A stretch of 64,000 nucleotides of DNA, taken from Candidatus Eiseniibacteriota bacterium (lineage in GTDB: Bacteria; Eisenbacteria; RBG-16-71-46; CAIMUX01; VGJL01). The stretch spans positions 1 to 64,000 of the forward strand of contig JBHGAY010000001.1 of assembly GCA_041946735.1 (NCBI GenBank), written 5' to 3'. This document shows positions 38,182 to 49,571 of this stretch, piece by piece (position 1 is the first letter of the stretch; the number at the start of each line of letters is the position of its first letter). A program made the position numbers and the translations under genes. Under the pieces are notes generated by a model. The model had not been told where the DNA came from, ran no database searches, and worked only from the letters and a program-made list of their open reading frames with translations.

Positions 38182-40743
38182 CTAGAGAGCAGCGAGCTTC
38201 TCGCGCACCTCCGCCGCCTCCGGCCGGTCGGGATAGAGCGCGAGGAACCGGCCCCACATCGAACGGCATCGCTCGCGATCGCCGGAGGAGAAGGCGAGCC
38301 CGCCGAGGTTCAGGAGGGCGAGCGGGTGGTCGGCCCTCTCCTCGAGGAGCATCTGCCAGATCGCCGCCGCCGCGTCGCCACCTGTTTCGCCCGCGCCGAC
38401 TTCGCCACCGTCTTCAGCGCCGCCTGCGCCGCCGTCTGCCACGCCGCCTCCACTGCCGTCTCCCGAGCCTCCCGCCTGCAGGATGCGCACCGCCTGATGG
38501 TTCAGATCCTCGGGCGTGAGCTGCCCGGCGCGCAGCAGACCGCGCCAGAGCGGAAGGCCGCGCGATGCCCGCCCGGTCGCGGCGAAGAACGACGCGAGGT
38601 CGCGGGCGATCGCGGCCGCGGCTGGCGAAGCGCGGAGCGCCTGCTCGGGCGCCGGGGGGGACGGCGACAGCGACGGCGACAGCGACGACGACAGCGAGGA
38701 CGACAGCAGTCGCACTGCCGGCTCGTACGTCTCGCGATCCTCCGTCATCGCCTCCCACGCCCGCGTCGCTTCCGGCAGCTCGTCGAGCCGGAGAAGCTCC
38801 TCGAGTCGGAGGCGTCGGACCTCGGCGAGCCGCTCGGTCCCTGCCTGTTCCAACGCGGCGTGCATGCCTGCCGCAAGGCGCAGCGCCTCCTCGCGCCGCT
38901 GCCAAGCGAGGCCCGACCGCAAGTCGATCGCGGCCTCGTGGAGCGAGCGCGCCCGGTCGAGGATCCCGGCGCTCGTCGTCCCTCCGCGCGCGAGGGTGTC
39001 CCGGTAAAGGACGACCGCCTCCCCTTCCTCGCCGCGGCGCAGGAGCATGTCGGCCAGGCTCAGCCGCGCTTCGTCCGATTCGGGATGGAACGCCATCTCG
39101 CGGCGGTAGGCGGCCTCTGCCGAGTCGGCCCGGCCGCTCAGGTCGAAAAGATTCCCGAGAGTGAGCTGCGCGCCGCGCAGGCGCGGATCGCGGCGAAGCG
39201 CCTCGCCGATCGCGCGCGTCGCCTCGGGAAGGCGTCCCGAGCTTCCGTATTCCGTCGCGAGACTGACCCAGGACTCGACGCGGTCCGGGTCGGCCTCCAC
39301 CTGGCGCGTGAGAAGCGCCTCCTCGGAGACGAGCGGGGCGGCGCGCGCCGGGACGCGGAAGAGCCCGATCAGGGCGAGCAGGAAGACCGCCGCCGGAATC
39401 GCGGGAGCCGGAAGCCTGCGGCGCACCGCGAAGGAGCCCGCGAGCGACTGCGCGCCGGCGGCGACGGCGAGCGCGAAGCCTGCGGACGGGACGTAGAGCC
39501 AGTACTCCGTCACGATCGCCCGGAAGACGAGAGGCGCGAGATGCGATACCGGCAGCAGGCTCACGACGATCCAGCCGAGGCCGAGACCGGCCGCATGCCC
39601 CCGCCGGATCAGCAGGATCGCGCCGGCGATCGTCGCGCCGAGCACAGGCAGTCCCAACAGAACGCGCGGATCGAGAAAAGAGGCGACCGGCGGGAACGAG
39701 ACCTCGAGCGCCAAGGCTCCGGGCAGCAGCAGAGCCTTGGCGTACCAGAGGAAGGCGGCCGGCAGGATCGCGGGCCGCAGCGAGCCGCTCGCCGACCGCG
39801 CCCCCGCCTGCAGATCGGGCAGGCCCAGGATCGCCGCGCGGAAGACCAGCAGGAGAACAGCGGCGGCTGCCGTAGCGGCAAGCTCCGCCCACGGCCAGGC
39901 GGGGACGGCGGCTGGGACCGTGGCGGAGGCGGCGCGGCCCTCCCGCTTCTCGCCCGCGGGCGCCCGCCGCGCCTGCGAGCGCCGCAGCCACGCGTGCAGC
40001 AGGAGCAGCCCCGGCAGCGAGAAGGCCATCTCCTTCGAGAGCAGGGCGAGGACGAACGCGACGAGCCCGACGGCGAGATCCGCCCTCGCCTTCCATCGGC
40101 CGGCAGCCTGGCCCTCCGACGCCCGCGAGGCGGCTCCGGCGTCCATCGACCGGTCGATCGCGACCGAGAGGCGGTCGTAGGCGAGGAGCAGGAAGACGGC
40201 GCAGAGCAGGTCGGTCCGGCCCGAGATCCAGGCGACGCTTGCGACATGGACCGGGTGTGTCGCGAACAAGAGAGCGCCGGCGAGCGCGAACGGCCGGCGG
40301 AGGCCGAGGCGCAAGAGGATCGAGCAGACGAGAAGGCTCGCCAAGGCGTGCAGCAGCAGGTTCGTGGCGTGAAAGGCCCGTGGGCTGCCGCCGCCGATCC
40401 GCGCGTCGAGCGCGTAGGAAAGAGTGACGAGCGGGCGGTAGTAGTCCTTCTCCTCGCCCGGCAGAGCGCCGTACGCGCCCCCCTTCCAGAACGGCGACGT
40501 GAACGCGTCCGCGACGGGGAGGCTGCGCGTGTAGGACGGCAGGCGGTCGACGATCAGATGGCGGTCGTCGCTGACGAACCCGTAGCGAAGCGATCCGCCG
40601 AAGGCGAGCAGGCAGGCCAGGAGGATCGAGCCGGTCGCGATCCAGCGGAACGCTCGCGCCCCTCCGTCGACGGCCGCGCCCGCCCCCTTCCCCGCTTCCC
40701 TCGCTTCTTCAGCCGCCGGCGGGCGGCCCTTCGCCCGTGCCAT
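38182..40743 (-). CDS. TMTC-like GT-C glycosyltransferase (putative protein O-mannosyltransferase) with C-terminal TPRs
   Basis: GFVSDD, YYRPL, FHATNLLLH, LFATHPVH..VAWISGR.DLL, ALLSKE, WLYVPS; TPR tail. Confidence 0.85.
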   Translation of the reverse strand: MARAKGRPPAAEEAREAGKGAGAAVDGGARAFRWIATGSILLACLLAFGGSLRYGFVSDDRHLIVDRLPSYTRSLPVADAFTSPFWKGGAYGALPGEEKDYYRPLVTLSYALDARIGGGSPRAFHATNLLLHALASLLVCSILLRLGLRRPFALAGALLFATHPVHVASVAWISGRTDLLCAVFLLLAYDRLSVAIDRSMDAGAASRASEGQAAGRWKARADLAVGLVAFVLALLSKEMAFSLPGLLLLHAWLRRSQARRAPAGEKREGRAASATVPAAVPAWPWAELAATAAAAVLLLVFRAAILGLPDLQAGARSASGSLRPAILPAAFLWYAKALLLPGALALEVSFPPVASFLDPRVLLGLPVLGATIAGAILLIRRGHAAGLGLGWIVVSLLPVSHLAPLVFRAIVTEYWLYVPSAGFALAVAAGAQSLAGSFAVRRRLPAPAIPAAVFLLALIGLFRVPARAAPLVSEEALLTRQVEADPDRVESWVSLATEYGSSGRLPEATRAIGEALRRDPRLRGAQLTLGNLFDLSGRADSAEAAYRREMAFHPESDEARLSLADMLLRRGEEGEAVVLYRDTLARGGTTSAGILDRARSLHEAAIDLRSGLAWQRREEALRLAAGMHAALEQAGTERLAEVRRLRLEELLRLDELPEATRAWEAMTEDRETYEPAVRLLSSSLSSSLSPSLSPSPPAPEQALRASPAAAAIARDLASFFAATGRASRGLPLWRGLLRAGQLTPEDLNHQAVRILQAGGSGDGSGGGVADGGAGGAEDGGEVGAGETGGDAAAAIWQMLLEERADHPLALLNLGGLAFSSGDRERCRSMWGRFLALYPDRPEAAEVREKLAAL

Positions 40744-40773
40744 CTGTCCGTCCCCTCCGTCCTTCGACGCGCC

Positions 40774-42480
40774 TCAGCGCGAACCGGCCGTCGCCCGGCC
40801 GCCGCCGCCCGGGGCGGCGGACGCGCGGCGATCGAGCCGCACGCGCACGAGCGCCACGCCGACGAGGTAGAGGGCGAGCAGGATCAGCGCGATCGCAGCC
40901 AGTCCATTGACCATCTCGAGGTTCAGGCCACGGGCGGCGCGGAAGTTCGCGATCCCGAGCCGCAGGAGAGCGGTCAGCGTCGCGGCCAGCACGAAGAGCA
41001 TCGGCAGCAACGTGAACGCGATCCGCTTGCGGGCGCGATGGAGCCAGTAGGTGACGGCGAGCAGCGTCAGCGCCGCGAGGAGCTGGTTCGAGGCGCCGAA
41101 GAGCGTCCAGAACTTCGCCCAGCTCCCCGCGCTCGTCGCGAGCAGGAAATAGAGCGGCAGTGCAGCGGTGATCAGCGTGCCGGCGAGCGCGCCCCACCGT
41201 CCCCGCCATCCGGTCAGCTCCTGCAGAATGTAGCGGCCGAGCCGCATGCAGACGTCGAGCGTGTCGAAGACGAACGTCGAGAACGCCATCGCGCCGAAGG
41301 TGACGGCGAACGCCAGGTTCTTCTCGCCGACCAGGAGCGTGAGGAAGCGGCCGATTCCGTTGCCGTAGATCGTTCCGGGAGCCAGGCCGGCCAGATTCCG
41401 GGGCGCGACGATCATGATCGTCACGAGCGCGATCAGCGCTACGAACCCTTCGGCCAGCATTGCGCCGTAGCCGATCGGCTTCATGTGGCTCTCGCGCGCG
41501 ATCTGCTTCGACGTCGTCCCCGAGCAGACGAGGCCGTGGAATCCCGAACAGGCGCCGCAGGCGATCGTCACGAACAGGAACGGGAAGAGCGCGCCGGTCA
41601 TTCCCCCCACGTCCCAGGAGCGGAAGGCCGGCTGCTGGATCGAGTAGCCGCCGAAGAGCACGCCGATCACGCCGGCCGCGAGCGCGGAGTACAGGACGAA
41701 CCCTCCGAGATACCCGCGCGGCTGCAGGAGCGACCAGACCGGGACGACGGAGGCGACGCAGCAGTAGGCGAGGATCAGCAACGCCCAGGTGCGATGGTCG
41801 AGAAGCAGCACGTGGGAGACGTGCGTCCCGAGCCATGCAAGCCCGAAGGTGGCGGGCACGAAGACGAGGGTGGCCAGCCAGAGAGGCGGCTTCAGGAAAC
41901 GGTTGACGATCCCCAGGACGACGGCGAGGGCGAGGTAGAGCACGCTCGCCGCCGCGACCGCGCCGCCGGGATGGAAGGAAACGCCTCCTTGCCGCAGCTC
42001 TTCGGTCCCGGCGACGAAACTGCCCGCCGTGATGTCGGAGAACGCGACGATCACGTAGACCAGGGCGATCCAGATGAAGACCAGGATTGCGCGTCCCGCT
42101 CCGGTCCCGAGGTGCTCGCGCGTGATCTCGGCGATCGATTGCGCGCCGTGCCGCACGGAAGCCGCGAGGCTCGTGAAGTCGTGGACCGCGCCGATCAGCA
42201 CGACTCCGAAGCCGATCCAGATCAGACACGGCAGCCACCCGAAGGCCTGGCAAGCGAGGATCGGGCCGGCGATCGGCCCGGCGGCGGCGATGGCGGAGAA
42301 GTGCTGGGCGAAGAGGTAGAACGGAGGGGTCGGCACGAAGTCCACTCCGTCGTTCACGGTCCGCGCCGGGGTCGTGCGCGCGTCGTCGACCGCGAGTTGC
42401 CGCGCGATCCAGCGCCCATAGAGCTGGTAGGCAAGGACGAGGACGACGAGGAATCCCACCGCGAGAATCGTCAAAGACAT
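40774..42480 (-). CDS. cstA: Carbon starvation protein A family transporter
   Basis: TPA..NDGVDFVP, HFSAIAAAGPIAGPI, GAVHDF, PVWSLLQPRGY, FVTIACGACSGFH, GYGAML.EG, WTLFGASNQLLA. Confidence 0.95.
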   Translation of the reverse strand: MSLTILAVGFLVVLVLAYQLYGRWIARQLAVDDARTTPARTVNDGVDFVPTPPFYLFAQHFSAIAAAGPIAGPILACQAFGWLPCLIWIGFGVVLIGAVHDFTSLAASVRHGAQSIAEITREHLGTGAGRAILVFIWIALVYVIVAFSDITAGSFVAGTEELRQGGVSFHPGGAVAAASVLYLALAVVLGIVNRFLKPPLWLATLVFVPATFGLAWLGTHVSHVLLLDHRTWALLILAYCCVASVVPVWSLLQPRGYLGGFVLYSALAAGVIGVLFGGYSIQQPAFRSWDVGGMTGALFPFLFVTIACGACSGFHGLVCSGTTSKQIARESHMKPIGYGAMLAEGFVALIALVTIMIVAPRNLAGLAPGTIYGNGIGRFLTLLVGEKNLAFAVTFGAMAFSTFVFDTLDVCMRLGRYILQELTGWRGRWGALAGTLITAALPLYFLLATSAGSWAKFWTLFGASNQLLAALTLLAVTYWLHRARKRIAFTLLPMLFVLAATLTALLRLGIANFRAARGLNLEMVNGLAAIALILLALYLVGVALVRVRLDRRASAAPGGGGRATAGSR

Positions 42481-42488
42481 GACGCGCC

Positions 42489-42518
42489 AGTATGCGCTTC
42501 GCTCCCGGGGACGGTCAA
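42489..42518 (-). promoter_or_regulatory. Putative sigma70 promoter TTGACC-N18-CATACT, 8 nt before the cstA ATG (near-leaderless)
   Basis: Hexamers and spacing read directly; no SD. Confidence 0.6.
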
Positions 42519-42671
42519 CGAACAGAAACCCGATGACGGGCGCCGGCCGGTGTGCGACGATCCCGGCGCCGGTCGTGACCCCGGCGCTCGACCTTCGGTC
42601 TTGGTGCGAAGCTCCTCGAGACGGGAGAGGAGGCCGGAGGGAGAGGCGGCCGGCATGAGGTCGGTGCACGC

Positions 42672-44249
42672 ATGAGACTCGAGGCTCGCCTCGCCCTGAT
42701 CCTGGTCGGTGTCGTCGCACTCGCCGGCCTCGGCGCGCTCACCGCCCTGCTCGCCGCCCGCTCGCTCGGAGAGACGATGGAGGAGATCATCACCTCCAAC
42801 GTCTCCAGCGTGCGAGCCGCCGAGGAGCTGGAGATCTCCCTGCTCGAGCAGCGCGGTCTCACCTCCGCTTTCCTCCTGGACGACGGCAACGAGGCGTGGC
42901 TCCAGGAGCTCGAGACCCGCCGGGCCGAGTTCGAGAAGTGGCTCGCCCGCGCCCGCGCGGCCGCCCGTGAGCCGGAGGAGCATCGGATCCTTGCGGATCT
43001 CGGCACGACCTACCTGCGCTACGACGCGGTGCGCGACAGGGTGCTGGAGACCTACCGGAGAGGGGAGAAAGACCAGGCGCGCCGGCTGCAGCTCGGCTCC
43101 GTCAAGGAGCTGTCCGAGGCGACCTACCAGCTTTCCGAAGCGCTCATCGCGACGAACGAGCGGGCGATGGACCGGAGCGTCCAGGCGGCCCGCCGGAAGA
43201 TCGCCCGCACCACGCTTCTCGTCTCGGGATCGCTGGGCCTGACGATCCTCGGAAGCCTGGCGCTCCTCCTCGCGTTCGTGCGAGGCGTGCTCAATCCGGT
43301 CCGCCGTCTCGCTCGTGAGGCGCGGGAGGCGCGCGGCGAGGAGGCGCCTTCCCGGCTCGCGGGTCCCGAGGACGAGCTGCGCGAGGTCGGCCGCTACCTG
43401 CGCGATCTCGTCAGCGACGTGGAGGAGTCCCGCGAACAGATCGAGCGAAGCCGGGTCCATCTGGAGAGCGCCGAGAAGCTGGCGAGCGTCGGCAAGCTGG
43501 CGGCGAGCGTGGCGCACGAGATCCGCAATCCCCTGACCTCGATCCGCATGCGGCTCTACACGCTTCGCCATCAGATCGGCAGCGGTGGTAGCGGCGGAGG
43601 AGGCGGCAGCGCTGGGGGAAGTGGCGGTCGTGGCGGCGGCGGCGGGATCGATGGGGCCGGCGGAGTCGACCTCGCCGATCAAGCGGAGGACTTCGAGGTC
43701 ATCGACTCGGAACTGCGGCGGCTCGAGTCGATCGTGCACAACTTCCTCGAGTTTTCCCGTCCCCCGCAGCTCTCGCCTCGCGTCGAGCCGATCCCCCCGC
43801 TGATCGAACAGACGCTCGAGCTGATGGAGCCCTGGCTCGAGTCCCGTCGCGTCCGCGTCCACTGCGATCTCGAGACGGACCTTCCCCGCGTCTTCGCCGA
43901 CGCCGCGCAGATCCGCCAGGTCTTCGTGAACCTGATCCGCAACGCGGTCGAGGCAATGCCCGAGGGAGGGGAGCTGACCGTGACCGGTTGCGCCGCACGC
44001 AATCCGTCCGGATCGGACGGCGTCGCGCTGCGCTTCGAGGACACCGGGCCGGGGATCGCGGACGAGGCGCGGGAGCGTATCTTCGATCCGTTCTTCACGA
44101 CGAAGGCGGAGGGAACCGGCCTGGGGTTGACGATCGCCGCCTGGATCGTCGCCCGGCACGAGGGTCGCCTGGACCTCGAGGGGACCGGGCCGCGCGGAAG
44201 CCGATTCTCCCTTTGGCTGCCCTCCGCAGCCGCGCATCGGGAGGGATGA
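42672..44249 (+). CDS. Sensor histidine kinase (TM - four-helix-bundle sensor - TM - HAMP - HisKA - HATPase)
   Basis: AHEIRNPL, NLIRNA, DTGPGI, FFTTK.EGTGLGL. Confidence 0.95.
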   Translation: MRLEARLALILVGVVALAGLGALTALLAARSLGETMEEIITSNVSSVRAAEELEISLLEQRGLTSAFLLDDGNEAWLQELETRRAEFEKWLARARAAAREPEEHRILADLGTTYLRYDAVRDRVLETYRRGEKDQARRLQLGSVKELSEATYQLSEALIATNERAMDRSVQAARRKIARTTLLVSGSLGLTILGSLALLLAFVRGVLNPVRRLAREAREARGEEAPSRLAGPEDELREVGRYLRDLVSDVEESREQIERSRVHLESAEKLASVGKLAASVAHEIRNPLTSIRMRLYTLRHQIGSGGSGGGGGSAGGSGGRGGGGGIDGAGGVDLADQAEDFEVIDSELRRLESIVHNFLEFSRPPQLSPRVEPIPPLIEQTLELMEPWLESRRVRVHCDLETDLPRVFADAAQIRQVFVNLIRNAVEAMPEGGELTVTGCAARNPSGSDGVALRFEDTGPGIADEARERIFDPFFTTKAEGTGLGLTIAAWIVARHEGRLDLEGTGPRGSRFSLWLPSAAAHREG

Positions 44250-45781
44250 TGAGCCGTATCGTAGTCGTCGACGACGAGCCGCAGATCCTCGCCTCGTTCG
44301 CGAAGCTGCTGCGCAGCCGCGGCCACGAGGTCGAGACGTACCGGCGGGCCGAGGAGGGAATGGAGGCGATCTCGCGCGAGGTCCCCGATCTGCTCGTGAT
44401 GGACATCCGTCTGCCGGGGATGAATGGGCTCGACGCCCTTCGCCGAACGCACGAGATCCATCCGCGCCTCCCCGTGATCTTGATGACCGGCTACGGGACG
44501 ATGCAGACGGCGGTCGAGGCGACGAAGCGCGGCGCGTTCGACTATCAGCTGAAGCCGTTCGATCCGGAGAAGCTGATCGAGGCGATCGATCGCGCGCTGG
44601 CCGGAGCGCGCCTGATGCGCCGGCCGGTCGAGCTGGATCCGGTGGCGCCGCCGGAGCAGGGAGACGCGTTGATCGGCCAGTCGGCCGCGATGCAGGAGGT
44701 GTACAAGACGATCGGCCGCGTCGCTCCCACCGACGCGACGGTGCTGATCCGCGGCGAGACCGGCACCGGGAAGGAGCTGGTCGCGCGCGCGATCTACCAG
44801 CACAGCCGGCGCAGCGCGGCGCCGCTCGTCGCGGTCAACTGCGCCGCGATCCCGGAGACCCTGCTCGAGAGCGAGCTGTTCGGGCACGAGCGCGGGGCCT
44901 ACACCGGAGCGGTCGCCAGCCGCATCGGCCGCTTCGAGCAGGCGCAAGGAGGCACGCTCTTCCTCGACGAGATCGGAGAGCTGCCCTCGCTCGTGCAGGC
45001 GAAGGTGCTGCGCGTGCTCCAGGAGAGAAGCTTCGAGAGGCTCGGCGGGACGGACACCGTGCGGGTCGACGTACGGCTCCTCGCCGCCACCAACCGCGAT
45101 CTCGAGAAGGCGATCCCCCAGGGGGAGTTCCGCGAGGACCTCTACCATCGCCTCCACGTCGTCACGATCCACCTGCCGCCGCTGCGGCAGCACCGGGAGG
45201 ACATCCCGCGCCTCGCCGCCTACTTCCTCGACCGCTTCTCGCGCGAGTTGGCGGTGGAGCGGCCGATCCTCGCGCCCGAGGCGCAGGAGACGCTGCTGGC
45301 CCATCCCTGGCCGGGCAACGTCCGGGAGCTGGAGAACGCGATCCAGCGCGCCGTGATCTTCACCCGGGGCTATCCGATCCAGAAGGCGGACATCCTGCGC
45401 GCCCTCGAAGGGGCTGCAACGCCCGGTGGGCCAACGACGGGAACGGGGACGGGGACGGGGACGGGAACGGGGACGGCGGAGGATGGGGGACGAGTGGCGA
45501 GGCCGGCTGGGACTGCCGCGGCGGGATCGGGACCGGCGCAGGCGAACGCGCCCGGCGAGGAGCCGATGCGCGCCATCGTCCGCGCGCATCTCGAAGCCCA
45601 CGCAGGGAACGAGGCGCATGAGAAGCTCCTCGATCTCGTCGACCGCCTGCTCGTCGTCGAGGCGATGCGGATCGCCGGAGGCAACCAGACGCGCGCCGCG
45701 AAGCTCCTCGGGCTCTCTCGCCCAAGCCTCCAGACGCGGCTGCAGAAGCACGGCATCAGGATGGAGCCTCGCGAGGGGTAG
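44246..45781 (+). CDS. Sigma54-dependent response regulator (NtrC/AtoC family: REC-AAA+-Fis HTH)
   Basis: VVDDE, MDIRLPG, GETGTGKEL, ESELFGHERGAYTGA, FLDEIG, WPGNVREL, GNQTRAAKLLG; ATGA overlap with the kinase. Confidence 0.96.
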   Translation: MMSRIVVVDDEPQILASFAKLLRSRGHEVETYRRAEEGMEAISREVPDLLVMDIRLPGMNGLDALRRTHEIHPRLPVILMTGYGTMQTAVEATKRGAFDYQLKPFDPEKLIEAIDRALAGARLMRRPVELDPVAPPEQGDALIGQSAAMQEVYKTIGRVAPTDATVLIRGETGTGKELVARAIYQHSRRSAAPLVAVNCAAIPETLLESELFGHERGAYTGAVASRIGRFEQAQGGTLFLDEIGELPSLVQAKVLRVLQERSFERLGGTDTVRVDVRLLAATNRDLEKAIPQGEFREDLYHRLHVVTIHLPPLRQHREDIPRLAAYFLDRFSRELAVERPILAPEAQETLLAHPWPGNVRELENAIQRAVIFTRGYPIQKADILRALEGAATPGGPTTGTGTGTGTGTGTAEDGGRVARPAGTAAAGSGPAQANAPGEEPMRAIVRAHLEAHAGNEAHEKLLDLVDRLLVVEAMRIAGGNQTRAAKLLGLSRPSLQTRLQKHGIRMEPREG

Positions 45782-45933
45782 CGCCGGATTCCCTGCGATC
45801 CGCCGGAAACCCGGCACCCGGCACGCGCACCGGCGGAAGGTTCCGCTCAAGTCGCGCGGGCGACTTCGTCGTTCGTTCGCGAAAGCTTCGTGGCTGAAGC
45901 ATCTTGCCGTTGCTCGCCCCGCATCCGCTCCTC

Positions 45934-45949
45934 TGGCACGAGGCGTGCT
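45934..45949 (+). promoter_or_regulatory. Sigma54 (-24/-12) promoter TGGCACG-AGGC-GTGCT
   Basis: GG-N10-GC spacing is exact; one mismatch to TGGCACG-N4-TTGCW; about 150 bp downstream of a sigma54 activator gene. Confidence 0.75.
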
Positions 45950-45959
45950 TCTTCCGGGA

Positions 45960-46165
45960 CGTCCTTGGTCGGCAACGACCTCGTGACGGCTCGTGGAAAC
46001 GGCCACTCCCCGGGAGCAGAAGAACCGCTGTTTCCGGGGAGGCGCCGGCGGCGAAGGCGAAGGCGGGCGTCCCGATCAGCGCGCTCGGCCCTGGGTTCGC
46101 CGCCGGCGCGTTCGTTCGTATCGGCTCGGCACCGGACTCCGAGGGGGAGAGTTTCCGAGCCCCGC
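45960..46165 (+). ncRNA. Candidate sigma54-dependent structured small RNA (~200 nt)
   Basis: Five consecutive hairpins after the promoter, including GNRA loops (GGTCG-GCAA-CGACC; CGT-GGAA-ACG) and two 14-bp stems; G-U pairs favour the + strand; no credible ORF. Confidence 0.5.
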
Positions 46166-46196
46166 TCCCACCCGTGGTTCCCGCGACCGTGCCTGC

Positions 46197-47087
46197 CTAA
46201 TCCCCCTGCTCCCCGAGCAGCCCCCGGTGGATCGCCAGATGGCGCAACGCGAGCCGCGGGCGCCCCAGCTCCTCGTAGACCAGCGCGAGATTCATGTGCG
46301 CGTCGGCGAGATTCGGATCGAGCGTGATCGCGTGCCGGTAGTAGCGGACCGCCCGCTCGCCCCGGCCTCGGTCCTGCTCGCAAACGCCGAGATTGAACCA
46401 GGCGGTCGCGTCCTCCGGCCGGGAGCGAGCCGCCTGCCGGTAATGAGCCGCGGCCGCGGAGAGATTGCCTTCCTCGTGAAGCAACCTTCCGAGATTCAGA
46501 TGGGCGTCGGCATGGTCGGGATCGAGCTCGAGCGCGCGGCGATACGCGTCACGCGAAGCCTCCGGCTCGCAGCTCTCAAGGTCGCAGGCCAGCTCGTACC
46601 AGTCGGACGCCTCGAGGCGGCGATCCTCCGCGATCGCCTCGCGCGCGGCCCGGCGCACGAGGGGAGCGACCTCGGCCGCGATCTCGGAGACTTCGAAATC
46701 GAGGATCGTCTGCCCCGAGGCCGGATGCCAGGCGTCCCGGCCGTCGTGAACGACGAGATCCTCACCTTCCGCCGTGATGCGAACCGCGGTGAGATCGCGG
46801 CCGACCGGGAGCTGCTCGCGCAGGCGCGTGAGCGCGGCGCGGAGCCGGCGGGGCGGAACGGTCCGCGAGAGGTCGCGCGCCGTCCGCAGAAGGACGAGGT
46901 CCTGGAAGGAGAAGCGCAAGGCGCCGCGCGCGCCGCGGCGCGGCTCGAGGAGCCCGGCGCGCACGAAGGCGCGGATCTGCTGCTCGGTAAGCCCGAGCGC
47001 GGCCGCGGCCTCGCGGATTCCGTAGCCACTCGGGAAGCTGAGGCGGGCGAGATCGTCCGGACGTCCCTGGCGCTCGATCGTCGTCAT
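46197..47087 (-). CDS. MerR-type HTH + TPR protein
   Basis: YGIREAAAALGL..IRAFVRAGLL..RFSFQDLVLLRTA; TPRs AHLNLGRLL, AWFNLG, AHMNLALVY. Confidence 0.87.
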   Translation of the reverse strand: MTTIERQGRPDDLARLSFPSGYGIREAAAALGLTEQQIRAFVRAGLLEPRRGARGALRFSFQDLVLLRTARDLSRTVPPRRLRAALTRLREQLPVGRDLTAVRITAEGEDLVVHDGRDAWHPASGQTILDFEVSEIAAEVAPLVRRAAREAIAEDRRLEASDWYELACDLESCEPEASRDAYRRALELDPDHADAHLNLGRLLHEEGNLSAAAAHYRQAARSRPEDATAWFNLGVCEQDRGRGERAVRYYRHAITLDPNLADAHMNLALVYEELGRPRLALRHLAIHRGLLGEQGD

Positions 47088-47129
47088 GACTCTCCGTTAC
47101 CAGATCCGGAGCGAGAACGAAAGCGCGCG

Positions 47130-48170
47130 TCAAGCTCCTCCGCCGGCGCCCGAGCGCCTCGCCTTCCCCTTTCCATTCGACGAGCCTCTCCCGGCGGCGC
47201 CGGTGCCCGTCTTCTTCTCGTCCGGTAGGGCGGCCGAGCGAGGCGGCCGGCGCGTCGCGGCGCCCGCGCGTCCCCGAGAAGCGGCGGCGGCCCCTTCCGC
47301 TTCGCGCTCGGCGTCCCGGCGCGGGGAGGCGCCCCTGCGCGGGGAGGCTGCGCCGCCGGTGCGCGAGGCGGATCCCTTCCCGCCGCCGGCCGCCGGCGCC
47401 TCCGCGAGGCTCGCCTTCAACGCTTCCATCAGGTCGATCACCTTCGGCGGAGGCGCCTCGCTGGAAGCGATGGTGAACTGCTGCCCCTCGATCTTCTTCT
47501 GCAGGATCTCTTGGAAGCGCTTGCGGCTCTGGTCCTCGTACCGCTCCGGATGGAACTCGTCCGAGGCGGACTGGCGCAGGAGCTGAAGGGCGAGAGCGAG
47601 CTCGGCGTCCTTCACCTCGCCGCCGTTGCCGACGGGGACCTCCGAGATCGGCCGCACCTCCTCCGCGTGACGCAGCTGCTGCATGACGAGACCGCCGTCG
47701 AGCGGCCGCACGAGGACGATGTACTCCTTACCGCGCGCCGCGTAGCGCGCGAGGCCGCCAAGCCCGGTGTCGGCCATCGCCCGCGCGAGGAGCTTGTACG
47801 CGCGATCCCCTCCCTTGTCGGGCCCGAGGTAGTACGCCCGGTCGAAGTAGACGGGATCGATCGTGTCGAGCGGCACGAACTCCTCGATCGCGATCGCCTT
47901 CGTCGCCTCCTCCTCGAGCGCCTCGATCTCCTCCTGGGAGAAAAGGACGAACTGATCCTTGGCGAACTCGTAGCCCTTCACGATCTGGTCCCGATCGACC
48001 TTCTCGTTGTCGGCCGGGCAGACGTACTGCTGTCGGATCGGCGTGCGGCACTTCGCGTGCAGCATCCGGAAGGAGATCCCCTCGCTCGACTGCGCGGTCG
48101 AGAACAGCTTGACGGGGATCGAGACGAGCCCGAAGGACACGGTAGCGGTCGCGATCGATCGGGGGGCCAT
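47130..48170 (-). CDS. ku: Non-homologous end-joining protein Ku
   Basis: SFGLVSIPVKLF, IVKGYE, IEEFVP..IDPVYFDRAYYLGPD, VIDLMEALKASL, basic tail; AGGAGG SD. Confidence 0.96.
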   Translation of the reverse strand: MAPRSIATATVSFGLVSIPVKLFSTAQSSEGISFRMLHAKCRTPIRQQYVCPADNEKVDRDQIVKGYEFAKDQFVLFSQEEIEALEEEATKAIAIEEFVPLDTIDPVYFDRAYYLGPDKGGDRAYKLLARAMADTGLGGLARYAARGKEYIVLVRPLDGGLVMQQLRHAEEVRPISEVPVGNGGEVKDAELALALQLLRQSASDEFHPERYEDQSRKRFQEILQKKIEGQQFTIASSEAPPPKVIDLMEALKASLAEAPAAGGGKGSASRTGGAASPRRGASPRRDAEREAEGAAAASRGRAGAATRRPPRSAALPDEKKTGTGAAGRGSSNGKGKARRSGAGGGA

Positions 48171-48540
48171 GAGAGCTTCCTCCTGTCCGGAGCAACCGGT
48201 GCGGGCCTCCCGGTTCTTCTCGACGAACCGGTTCATTCTATCGACTCGGCCCGCCGCCTGAGGAGTCGCAAGTCGACGCGCGGCCGGAGGAAGGGGCGCC
48301 GGGAGCCGGTTCATGGGGCGCCGAAGCGATCGATCGATCGGGAGTGCGGCCCGTTCGAGGGCTCCGTCTGCCCCGCCTCGCTGCGGCGACGGCGGCGACG
48401 CATCGATGGAATCGGATCGAGGTCCGATCCCGTGGCGAAGCTCGAGGCTCGATCCCCGAATCGGCGCGCGCCACACGCGACGCCCCGGTTCGATGCTCGA
48501 TGCTTCGAGACTTTGGACTGCTGGCCTCGCTCGGGAAGAG

Positions 48541-48580
48541 CAGACGCGGAAAAGGAGACACAGAAAAGAGACACAGAAAA
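48541..48580. repeat. 13-bp purine-rich tandem repeat GAGACACAGAAAA x2 plus one degenerate copy
   Basis: 48555-48567 and 48568-48580; degenerate copy 48541-48553. Confidence 0.75.
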
Positions 48581-48731
48581 GCGGTGACGATCCGGGAGCC
48601 GATCGCGCTACCCTCTCCCGGGACGGTCTGGGATGGCGCAGGGGGGGATCCCGGACCGTCGCCTTTCCTTCCCGGAGAAGCCGATTGCGGGGCGCCAGCG
48701 AGATCGGAAGCATGTCTGCAGAAGTCGATCG

Positions 48732-49571
48732 ATGATTACCGAGCATGAGGGTCTCTCGGTCGTCGTGCCGGTGCACGACGAGCAGGACGCGCTCCCGGCC
48801 CTTTGTGAGAATCTGCTCGCGACGCTCGCCCCCCTCGGCCGGCCCTTCGAGATCCTCCTCGTCGACGACGCCAGCCGCGACGCAAGCCCCGAGGTGGCGC
48901 GATCCCTCTCGCGATCCGAGCCGCGTATCCGCAGCCTTCGCCTCTCGCCGCACGCCGGCCAGTCGGGCGCGCTCGCGGCCGGTTTCCGCGCCGCCCGGAT
49001 GCCGGTCATCGTCACCCTCGACGCGGATCTGCAGAACGATCCAGCCGACATCCCGCGCTTGCTCGATGCGCTGCGCGACGCGGACGCGGTCTGCGGAATC
49101 CGCGCGGAGCGGCGCGACACCTGGGTACGACGCGCCTCGAGCCGCATCGCGAACCGCATCCGAGACGGCGTGACCGGCGATCACGTGACCGACACCGGCT
49201 GCGGTTTGAAGGCGTTCCGCGCCGAGTTCCTTCGCGAGATCAAGATGTACCGCGGGCTCCACCGCTTCCTGCCGACCCTGCTGCGCCAGGAGGGGGCGCG
49301 CGTCGTCGAGATCCCCGTCGCGCATCGCCGGCGCACCTCGGGCCGCTCGAAGTACGGCATCCGCAACCGCGCGCTCCCCGCGTTGCGCGACTGCTTCGCC
49401 GTCCGCTGGATGCGCGATCGATCCTTGCGCTACGAGGTGCACGAGGATGCCCCGCCGCCACCGCCTGGATCGCCCGGACCGCCCGGGCCGGCTGGACCGG
49501 CCGGACCCGGGCAGGCAGAGGCGGCCGGCGGCGCGACGGGCGATCAGAGGAGCCGGCGCAGCCTCTCGTAA
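48732..49571 (+). CDS. GT2 glycosyltransferase (polyprenol-phosphate glycosyltransferase; DPM1/ArnC-like)
   Basis: LSVVVPVHDE, VDDASRD, GQSGAL.AG, TLDADLQNDP, DTGCGLKAFR, HRFLP, R.SGRSKY. Confidence 0.92.
   Translation: MITEHEGLSVVVPVHDEQDALPALCENLLATLAPLGRPFEILLVDDASRDASPEVARSLSRSEPRIRSLRLSPHAGQSGALAAGFRAARMPVIVTLDADLQNDPADIPRLLDALRDADAVCGIRAERRDTWVRRASSRIANRIRDGVTGDHVTDTGCGLKAFRAEFLREIKMYRGLHRFLPTLLRQEGARVVEIPVAHRRRTSGRSKYGIRNRALPALRDCFAVRWMRDRSLRYEVHEDAPPPPPGSPGPPGPAGPAGPGQAEAAGGATGDQRSRRSLS

Follow-up and report, generated by a model that had tools for sequence, protein, structure and literature searches.

A sigma-54-type promoter and a candidate structured small RNA behind an NtrC-type activator gene in an Eisenbacteria genome

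The stretch of DNA that we analyzed (the window, 64,000 nucleotides) belongs to a 4.89-Mb draft genome of a Candidatus Eiseniibacteriota bacterium, with a G+C content of 68.4% and a completeness of 94.8%, which contains one rpoN gene (E 7e-61) and 30 strong matches to the sigma-54 interaction domain (33 listed in all). The locus under study consists of a two-component system, a spacer and a convergent gene, with the coordinates of all features given in Table 1. The histidine kinase gene is followed by the gene of an NtrC-type response regulator, i.e., a sigma-54 activator, whose ATG start codon overlaps the kinase stop codon and is preceded by GGGAGGG. On the far side of the spacer lies a convergent gene encoding a protein with a MerR-type helix-turn-helix and TPR repeats, with a Ku-domain gene on its upstream side. 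A long + strand frame at 38326-42675 in the plain list of open reading frames was discarded as a shadow of the cstA and TPR protein genes. Contigs from a second study (X2) cross the spacer with 0 differences and show 3 differences in 522 flanking coding bases; this absence of differences in contigs that span the spacer demonstrates that the arrangement is real and not an assembly artefact. The contigs of the three other studies that we compared all represent the same strain, and therefore offer too little divergence to judge constraint on the spacer.

Table 1. Features of the two-component locus and its spacer (positions are those of the window)
Feature	Position	Strand	Remarks
TPR protein gene	38182-40743	-	
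cstA	40774-42480	-	Divergent from the kinase gene
Histidine kinase gene	42672-44249	+	4HB_MCP/TarH-like periplasmic sensor, HisKA, HATPase_c (Pfam)
NtrC-type response regulator/sigma-54 activator gene	44246-45781	+	REC, Sigma54_activat, AAA lid, Fis-type HTH (Pfam; E 1e-73 for the sigma-54 interaction domain)
Spacer between activator gene and convergent gene	45782-46196		415 bp
Dyad TCCGCCGG-N23-CCGGCGGA	45799-45837		Inverted repeat around tandem CCGGCAC CCGGCAC
Short hairpin AAGTCGC-GCGG-GCGACTT with tail CGTCGTTCGTTCG	45849-45880	+	Local fold
Sigma-54 (-24/-12) promoter TGGCACGAGGCGTGCT	45934-45949	+	11 of 12 consensus positions
Predicted non-coding transcript	45958-46122	+	About 160 nt; start near 45958-45961 by promoter geometry
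HP1	45967-45980	+	GGTCG-GCAA-CGACC
HP2	45988-46004	+	GGC(T)CGT-GGAA-ACGGCC
HP3	46006-46019/46028-46041	+	14 pairs including two G-U
HP4	46042-46055/46096-46109	+	14 perfect pairs
Putative terminator	46042-46122	+	HP4 (G+C-rich pairs, structured 40-nt interior) with T-rich tail GTTCGTTCGTATC
HP5	46123-46129/46155-46161		GGCTCGG/CCGAGCC; beyond the putative terminator
MerR-type HTH and TPR protein gene	46197-47087	-	Convergent (Pfam)
Ku-domain gene	from 47130	-	Upstream side of the MerR-TPR gene (Pfam)

Reading of the flanking genes identified several minor features. The activator gene contains a hexanucleotide tandem repeat (45436-45476; period 6, 6.8 copies), which gives rise to a (Thr-Gly) run in the protein, within the linker that joins the AAA+ lid to the DNA-binding helix-turn-helix, and the dimerisation domain of the kinase has a 29-residue Gly-rich insertion relative to the kinase of L044, a metagenomic relative. 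Immediately upstream of the kinase gene, a six-codon frame (ATG AGG TCG GTG CAC GCA TGA; 42655-42675) is preceded by a strong GGAGGGAGAGG ribosome-binding site and has a stop codon that overlaps the kinase start ATG at 42672, which suggests translational coupling or an upstream open reading frame for the kinase. Part of the frame that carries the Ku domain (47130-49571; 770 codons, with the domain at residues 436-601) is also covered, on the other strand, by a glycosyltransferase family 2 gene (48633-49571), so that the open frame probably overstates the length of the real Ku gene considerably.

Scored over the 12 positions of TGGCACG-N4-TTGCW, the promoter in the spacer has a complete -24 element and a single mismatch, a G that replaces the first T of TTGC. 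Base-by-base reading gives TGGCACG (45934-45940), the spacer AGGC and GTGCT (45945-45949), with a GG-GC distance of 10 nt, exactly as described in an initial annotation of this DNA made from the sequence alone. A G at this -12 position is present in 3 of 48 consensus-selected sites located upstream of genes, a count that is circular in its selection. In the 4.89-Mb genome we identified 14 sites that match 11 of the 12 positions, with 11 of these outside the cores of coding sequences and 3 inside (these cores being rough gene calls). Dinucleotide shuffling of the non-core sequence (10 shuffles) gave a mean of 5.0 sites (range 1-10) vs the 11 observed, and three shuffles of the cores gave 7-11 sites vs the 3 observed, i.e., outside genes such sites occur at about twice the shuffled level and inside genes they are depleted, and approximately half of those outside the cores could be due to chance. 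In the window alone, one match with a single mismatch is found vs 0.29 expected, and 26 of 100 shuffles contain at least one. By itself the match is no more than chance; its place and strand are unlikely by chance. What makes this promoter convincing is that it lies on the same strand as the window's only activator gene, 152 nt past its end, in a spacer that is free of genes. The spacer between cstA and the kinase gene contains no sigma-54 site above 7 of 12 positions.

Activator sites of sigma-54 promoters are located about 80-150 nt upstream of the promoter, and transcripts start about 12 nt after the GC. A dyad between the activator stop codon and the promoter has its centre some 140 nt before the predicted start and is not repeated in any other intergenic region of the genome, and we consider it a candidate binding site for the activator; we found neither a second copy nor an orthologous site for comparison. 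A short hairpin downstream of this dyad, seen in a local fold, is a weak candidate for terminating the activator transcript. Taken as a whole, the 152 nt from the activator stop codon to the promoter fold no better than shuffles (z -0.13).

Downstream of the promoter the picture is different from that in the preceding 152 nt. All five hairpins listed by the initial annotation are present at the positions it gave, and the 167 nt from 45958 to 46124 fold better than chance on the + strand (MFE -96.0, z -3.79, a value that none of 200 shuffles reached; z -3.2 in a re-run). The segment scored here was chosen after the hairpins had been seen. The - strand of the same 167 nt gives z -3.16, also with 0 of 200 shuffles as good, and of 45 intergenic windows of this length taken at random from the genome, 2 reach z <= -3, showing that the value is unusual, not extreme, against the genome background. 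Over all 237 nt up to the next gene, folding is moderately better than that of shuffles (z -2.0 on the + strand and -1.4 on the - strand). Sliding 100-nt windows located the signal more precisely: on the + strand z lies between -0.18 and +1.69 throughout 45600-45969, the strongest window is 45960-46059 (z -4.37 on the + strand vs -1.72 on the - strand), and the signal is gone by 46050. The onset of structure therefore coincides with the start predicted from the sigma-54 promoter and is specific to the + strand for HP1-HP3. The two 4-nt loops of HP1 and HP2 are of the GNRA type on this strand (GCAA and GGAA), which would weigh toward the + strand. The earlier preference for the + strand thus holds clearly for HP1-HP3 and does not extend to the 167 nt taken together, where the difference in energy between the strands (10.8 kcal/mol) is an ordinary one, matched or exceeded in 69 of 300 intergenic windows. 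HP5 could be part of the convergent gene's 3′ end, and 100-nt windows over it fold no better than shuffles.

A search of the window from 44000 to 48000 against Rfam 15 returned five matches at E <= 10, none of them near threshold, and none on the + strand of the spacer. The one match that touches the spacer is to the speF leader, on the - strand, at 14.1 bits vs a threshold of 37; no curated family is thus recognized in the spacer. The ORF reading agrees with the initial annotation that no credible sense frame lies downstream of the promoter, where the frames that start on the + strand are arginine-rich shadows of the convergent gene.

The statement that no U-tract terminator is visible proved too strong, since the 14-bp stem of HP4 is followed by the T-rich tail GTTCGTTCGTAT, with 6 T in 12. 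A generic terminator scan calls no terminator at HP4, and we therefore compared this hairpin with the others of the genome. Perfect palindromes with stems of at least 13 bp number 85 outside the cores of coding sequences vs 18 inside, i.e., they are about five times more frequent outside. Among 76 perfect hairpins (stem of at least 12 bp) that lie no more than 150 nt past a single gene end, the 12-nt tails contain a mean of 3.4 T on the strand of the gene and 2.0 T on the other, and tails with at least 6 T are found in 13 of the 76 on the gene's own strand and in one of the 76 on the opposite strand. This one exception is HP4, counted relative to the MerR-TPR gene. The strand of its tail is thus unique among the 76 hairpins, and HP4 is oriented to stop a + strand transcript and not that of the MerR-TPR gene. 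Because the 40-nt interior of HP4 is atypical in a genome where the loops of most strong hairpins are 3-10 nt, we class HP4 as a probable, and not a certain, terminator. A CGTTCGTTCG motif, of which two copies are present in the spacer, was rejected as a general terminator tail, as it occurs 33 times in the genome, partly in coding and partly in non-coding sequence.

Taken together, these observations suggest that the spacer on balance probably encodes a lineage-specific non-coding RNA of about 160 nt that depends on sigma-54 and on the adjacent activator and forms an independent transcription unit. In the mechanism that we infer from the sequence, the histidine kinase would phosphorylate the NtrC-type activator, which would bind upstream of the promoter, possibly at the dyad, and open it, and RNA polymerase would then make the RNA from near 45960. 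The RNA would fold into a series of four adjoining hairpins, with GNRA loops on two of them, and would end at HP4 and the U-rich tail near 46115-46122. It would be the only recognizable sigma-54 output beside this two-component system, and if it has a regulatory function it would most likely act in trans on mRNAs or proteins. The proposal of the initial annotation that the RNA is the output of the adjacent activator is consistent with the quality of the promoter, the position at which structure begins, the orientation of the HP4 tail, the lack of a frame and the lack of a rival site nearby, and finds no support in conservation or covariation.

Three described systems are built in the same way. 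In the text available from PMC5684412 and PMC5568312, the Pxr sRNA is described from Myxococcus xanthus and other Cystobacterineae, where it accompanies PxrK and PxrR (Nla19); the Myxococcus pxr spacer is about 260 nt long, and the RNA is 108 nt long with three stem-loops. The same text describes conservation of Pxr with its two-component system across the suborder, a proven developmental role, and family hallmarks that comprise conserved SL1 and SL2 and an 8-bp segment of SL3. The likeness of our locus to pxrK-pxrR-pxr, as far as these texts describe it, is one of gene order, with a kinase, an NtrC-type activator, and a spacer with an enhancer region and sigma-54 promoter followed by a multi-stem-loop RNA, the enhancer and the RNA being candidates in our locus. 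The candidate has about 178 nt from the activator stop codon to the predicted start, a length of about 160 nt and four stem-loops, and unlike Pxr it is a singleton predicted from sequence. Its host belongs to Eisenbacteria and lies outside the taxa of the Pxr family, with the closest relatives of its RpoN (77% identity) found in Candidatus Eisenbacteria.

The second system is CrcZ, which according to the text available from PMC5113210 is an sRNA gene directly downstream of cbrB, with an RpoN- and activator-dependent promoter and its own terminator, and can also be viewed as the 3′ UTR of the activator gene. By analogy, read-through from the activator gene followed by processing is an equally possible origin for the candidate RNA. 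Like CrcZ, the candidate lies directly behind a two-component activator gene and has an RpoN-type promoter and a putative terminator of its own, and the position of the kinase gene next to a carbon-starvation transporter gene, cstA, is a loose thematic parallel to carbon control. CrcZ is longer than the candidate and acts by titration of Hfq/Crc (PMC5113210). The candidate RNA, unlike CrcZ, is rich in G+C, and a search of this genome (94.8% complete) identified no Hfq gene. CrcZ titration works through A-rich motifs, and the candidate RNA contains no A-rich tracts; a protein sponge of the CrcZ/CrcY type would be expected to carry repeated motifs that bind an RNA-binding protein encoded by its own host. 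The third system is DVU0679 of Desulfovibrio vulgaris, a response regulator whose mapped target is a sigma-54-dependent sRNA gene just downstream of its own gene, in an arrangement that recurs in related species, with binding determined by DAP-chip and expression by tiling arrays, according to the text available from PMC3333781. The candidate shares this position just downstream of the regulator gene and, unlike the DVU0679 sRNA, is predicted from sequence.

Other roles for the RNA were also considered. CsrA is present in the genome, and a CsrA sponge was rejected, with GGA found 3 times in 163 nt (counted by eye), about as often as composition predicts. A MITE or other repeat element was rejected likewise, there being no other copies in the genome. 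The longest perfect complements to the start regions of the cstA, kinase, regulator and MerR-TPR genes are 7-8 nt, which is the background mode, and whole-molecule duplex energies are uninformative for target prediction.

Our searches for relatives of the candidate RNA identified no homologue in 205 other Eisenbacteria genomes. When the spacer was compared by blastn with 40 relatives, the matches were confined to G+C-rich stretches of 20-70 nt, and in the 205 genomes matches at E <= 1e-4 are present in 10, each 28-55 nt long, on either strand, and restricted to 46034-46111, the low-complexity GGCGCCGGCGGCGAAGGCGAAGG part of HP4. A covariance model, which was built from a single sequence and is limited in its reach by this, gave no match below E 0.02 in 60 relatives, and the best foreign matches (E 0.02-1) were set aside as having no sigma-54 site in front. 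Neither conservation nor covariation was thus found in any genome searched. A second sigma-54 unit of the same genome, L178 (G000:C72:6450-6900, - strand), serves as a positive control for the search, in that the same blastn recovers it from each of the 5 family genomes (E 3e-12 to 9e-26), and the negative result for the candidate RNA is therefore real at the family level. In L178, the promoter TGGCACCGAAGGTGCT is located 198 nt behind an activator gene of 1031 codons; the roughly 300 nt after it show no obvious open reading frame and end in a canonical hairpin and TGTTTTTCTG terminator, and it is the promoter and the 5′ part of the unit that blastn finds kept in all five genomes. L178 and the candidate have in common the GTGCT -12 element, the activator gene upstream, and non-coding sequence followed by a terminator, a putative one in the candidate; L178 differs in its length, in its canonical hairpin with a T-run and in its conservation, and it is not among the matches to the candidate's covariance model.

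The blank in conservation is explained by the rarity of the two-component system itself. The kinase sensor has no orthologue in 60 relatives, where the best matches have 25-32% identity, and within the phylum it was found in 3 of the other 205 genomes, each of which belongs to another family (37-40% identity, E 1e-42 to 1e-49); all three are from one and the same family. In the two of these comparator loci that contain the whole regulator gene, the kinase gene is adjacent (kinase 38-40% and regulator 52-54% identical), and a convergent gene lies 10 and 17 nt beyond the regulator gene; at the third locus the contig breaks off within the regulator gene, after 160 codons. The spacers of these orthologous loci contain no sigma-54 site that matches at least 9 of 12 positions, and the three genomes contain no match to the candidate RNA by covariance model or blastn. 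Short blastn matches to the promoter region in these genomes were rejected as lying inside coding-like sequence. On the other flank, MerR-TPR has one clear orthologue among 20 relatives (65% identity, in genome G015), which sits behind a 362-codon gene in the position of Ku and beside unrelated genes. The spacer is thus specific to this lineage, with both of its flanks having other neighbours elsewhere.

A more speculative reading, which we consider less likely than not, is that we see the birth of an sRNA, i.e., that in this lineage alone a patchily distributed two-component system may have gained a 415-bp spacer with an intact promoter and a four-hairpin RNA as its sole local output. Such a regulator would be young, having originated either de novo or in the leader of an orphaned operon. 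Provided that the RNA is made, it would be a case from an uncultured phylum of a two-component system and sigma-54 acting through an sRNA encoded behind the activator gene. This design is already known from Pxr, CrcZ and the Desulfovibrio sRNA; the special feature of the present locus is that the RNA is not conserved and is absent from the loci of orthologous Eisenbacteria regulators, which, if it is made, would render it useful for understanding how sRNA outputs arise.

A rather doubtful alternative, and the one that survives best, is that the promoter and the RNA are the remnant of an operon whose genes were removed by the rearrangement that brought in MerR-TPR and Ku, so that the leader would perhaps still be transcribed and have no selected function. 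In our search for activator orthologues, candidates from 40 relatives and from metagenome contigs were rejected, as the best have 41-51% identity and are no closer than the paralogues within the genome itself, and sigma-54 sites occur downstream in 9 of 74 such activator loci, with those that we read driving glnB, flgB or other genes. In the metagenomic relative L044 (regulator 51% and kinase 38% identical), a perfect sigma-54 promoter is present 366 nt behind the regulator gene and drives a 190-nt leader, a small open reading frame, a CBS protein gene and, further on, a DASS-type transporter gene. As this promoter drives protein genes, the present RNA could be a former operon leader; L044 is, however, too distant for sure orthology. 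Also in favour of this alternative, the spacer is conserved nowhere, and both of its flanks differ in the sole comparators, which places a breakpoint in or next to the spacer. Decay of a leader would not be expected to leave two perfect or near-perfect 14-bp stems, two GNRA hairpins, an oriented tail and a structure that begins exactly at the predicted start, and the promoter itself is intact.

We consider it improbable that the promoter acts by antisense transcription or interference, with termination at HP4 being weak and polymerase running head-on into MerR-TPR and Ku and lowering their expression, while the hairpins are incidental or tune the read-through. The promoter does face a convergent operon 250 nt away, the generic scan calls no canonical terminator, and 6 T in 12 is a modest tail. 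The orientation of that tail argues instead for termination on the + strand, and interference of this kind has no parallel in the genome, where the lone similar promoter precedes an ordinary gene with a ribosome-binding site.

Equally improbable is a chance match, in which nothing would be transcribed from 45934 and the hairpins would be terminators or protein-binding palindromes of the convergent genes. By chance a 64-kb window should contain 0.29 matches with one mismatch, chance could also account for about 5 of the 11 non-core sites of the genome, the 85 long palindromes outside the cores show that such stems are common in spacers, and both strands of the 167-nt stretch fold well. For chance to have placed the match on the right strand within 415 bp behind the window's only activator gene, however, a probability of roughly 0.29 x 0.003 is needed. 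In addition, HP1-HP3 are biased to the + strand, the strand of the T-rich tail does not fit the MerR-TPR gene, and 415 bp is long for a convergent spacer, given the 10-17 nt behind the orthologous regulators.

A small protein gene, be it the 98-aa frame at 45904-46200, the only + strand frame that is not plainly arginine-rich junk, or a shorter frame in the spacer, is very unlikely, since the 98-aa frame starts with a TTG upstream of the promoter, has neither a ribosome-binding site nor an internal ATG, GTG or TTG, belongs to no Pfam family, and has no match among the 53-172-residue proteins of a large protein collection and noise only in 60 relatives (E 7e-4 and worse, scattered inside long unrelated frames). 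The C-terminal half of this frame is not arginine-rich junk, and G+C by codon position, which is nearly flat across the spacer, shows a weak bias in its phase over 46000-46180 (0.80-0.88, 0.72-0.75 and 0.62-0.72 at the three positions), with a second-position value well above the approximately 0.5 of real genes here. Shadow frames at 45993-47228 (+ strand) and 45847-46383 (- strand) were rejected, as neither belongs to a Pfam family.

Sigma-54-like sites behind activator genes are not restricted to this locus, as 10 of the 30 activator genes of the genome have a site that matches at least 9 of 12 positions within 700 nt downstream. The four other such sites that we read precede an ordinary gene, a hydrophobic frame of 20-22 codons, dnaK and a non-coding stretch of about 300 nt. 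For example, at G000:C67 (about 138200-138435, - strand), the sigma-54-like site TGGCATGCTGCCTGCT is located 242 nt behind another activator gene. Downstream of this site come a strong ribosome-binding site and a hydrophobic frame of 22 codons (MFFGGLMFLFWFLHLALGRAGW), and about 500 nt pass without any larger gene. At G000:C29 (about 39000-39210, - strand), a weaker sigma-54-like site (9/12), 130 nt past the end of an activator gene, is followed by a long leader rich in purines and then by a gene that begins like dnaK (MGKIIGIDLGTTNS...).
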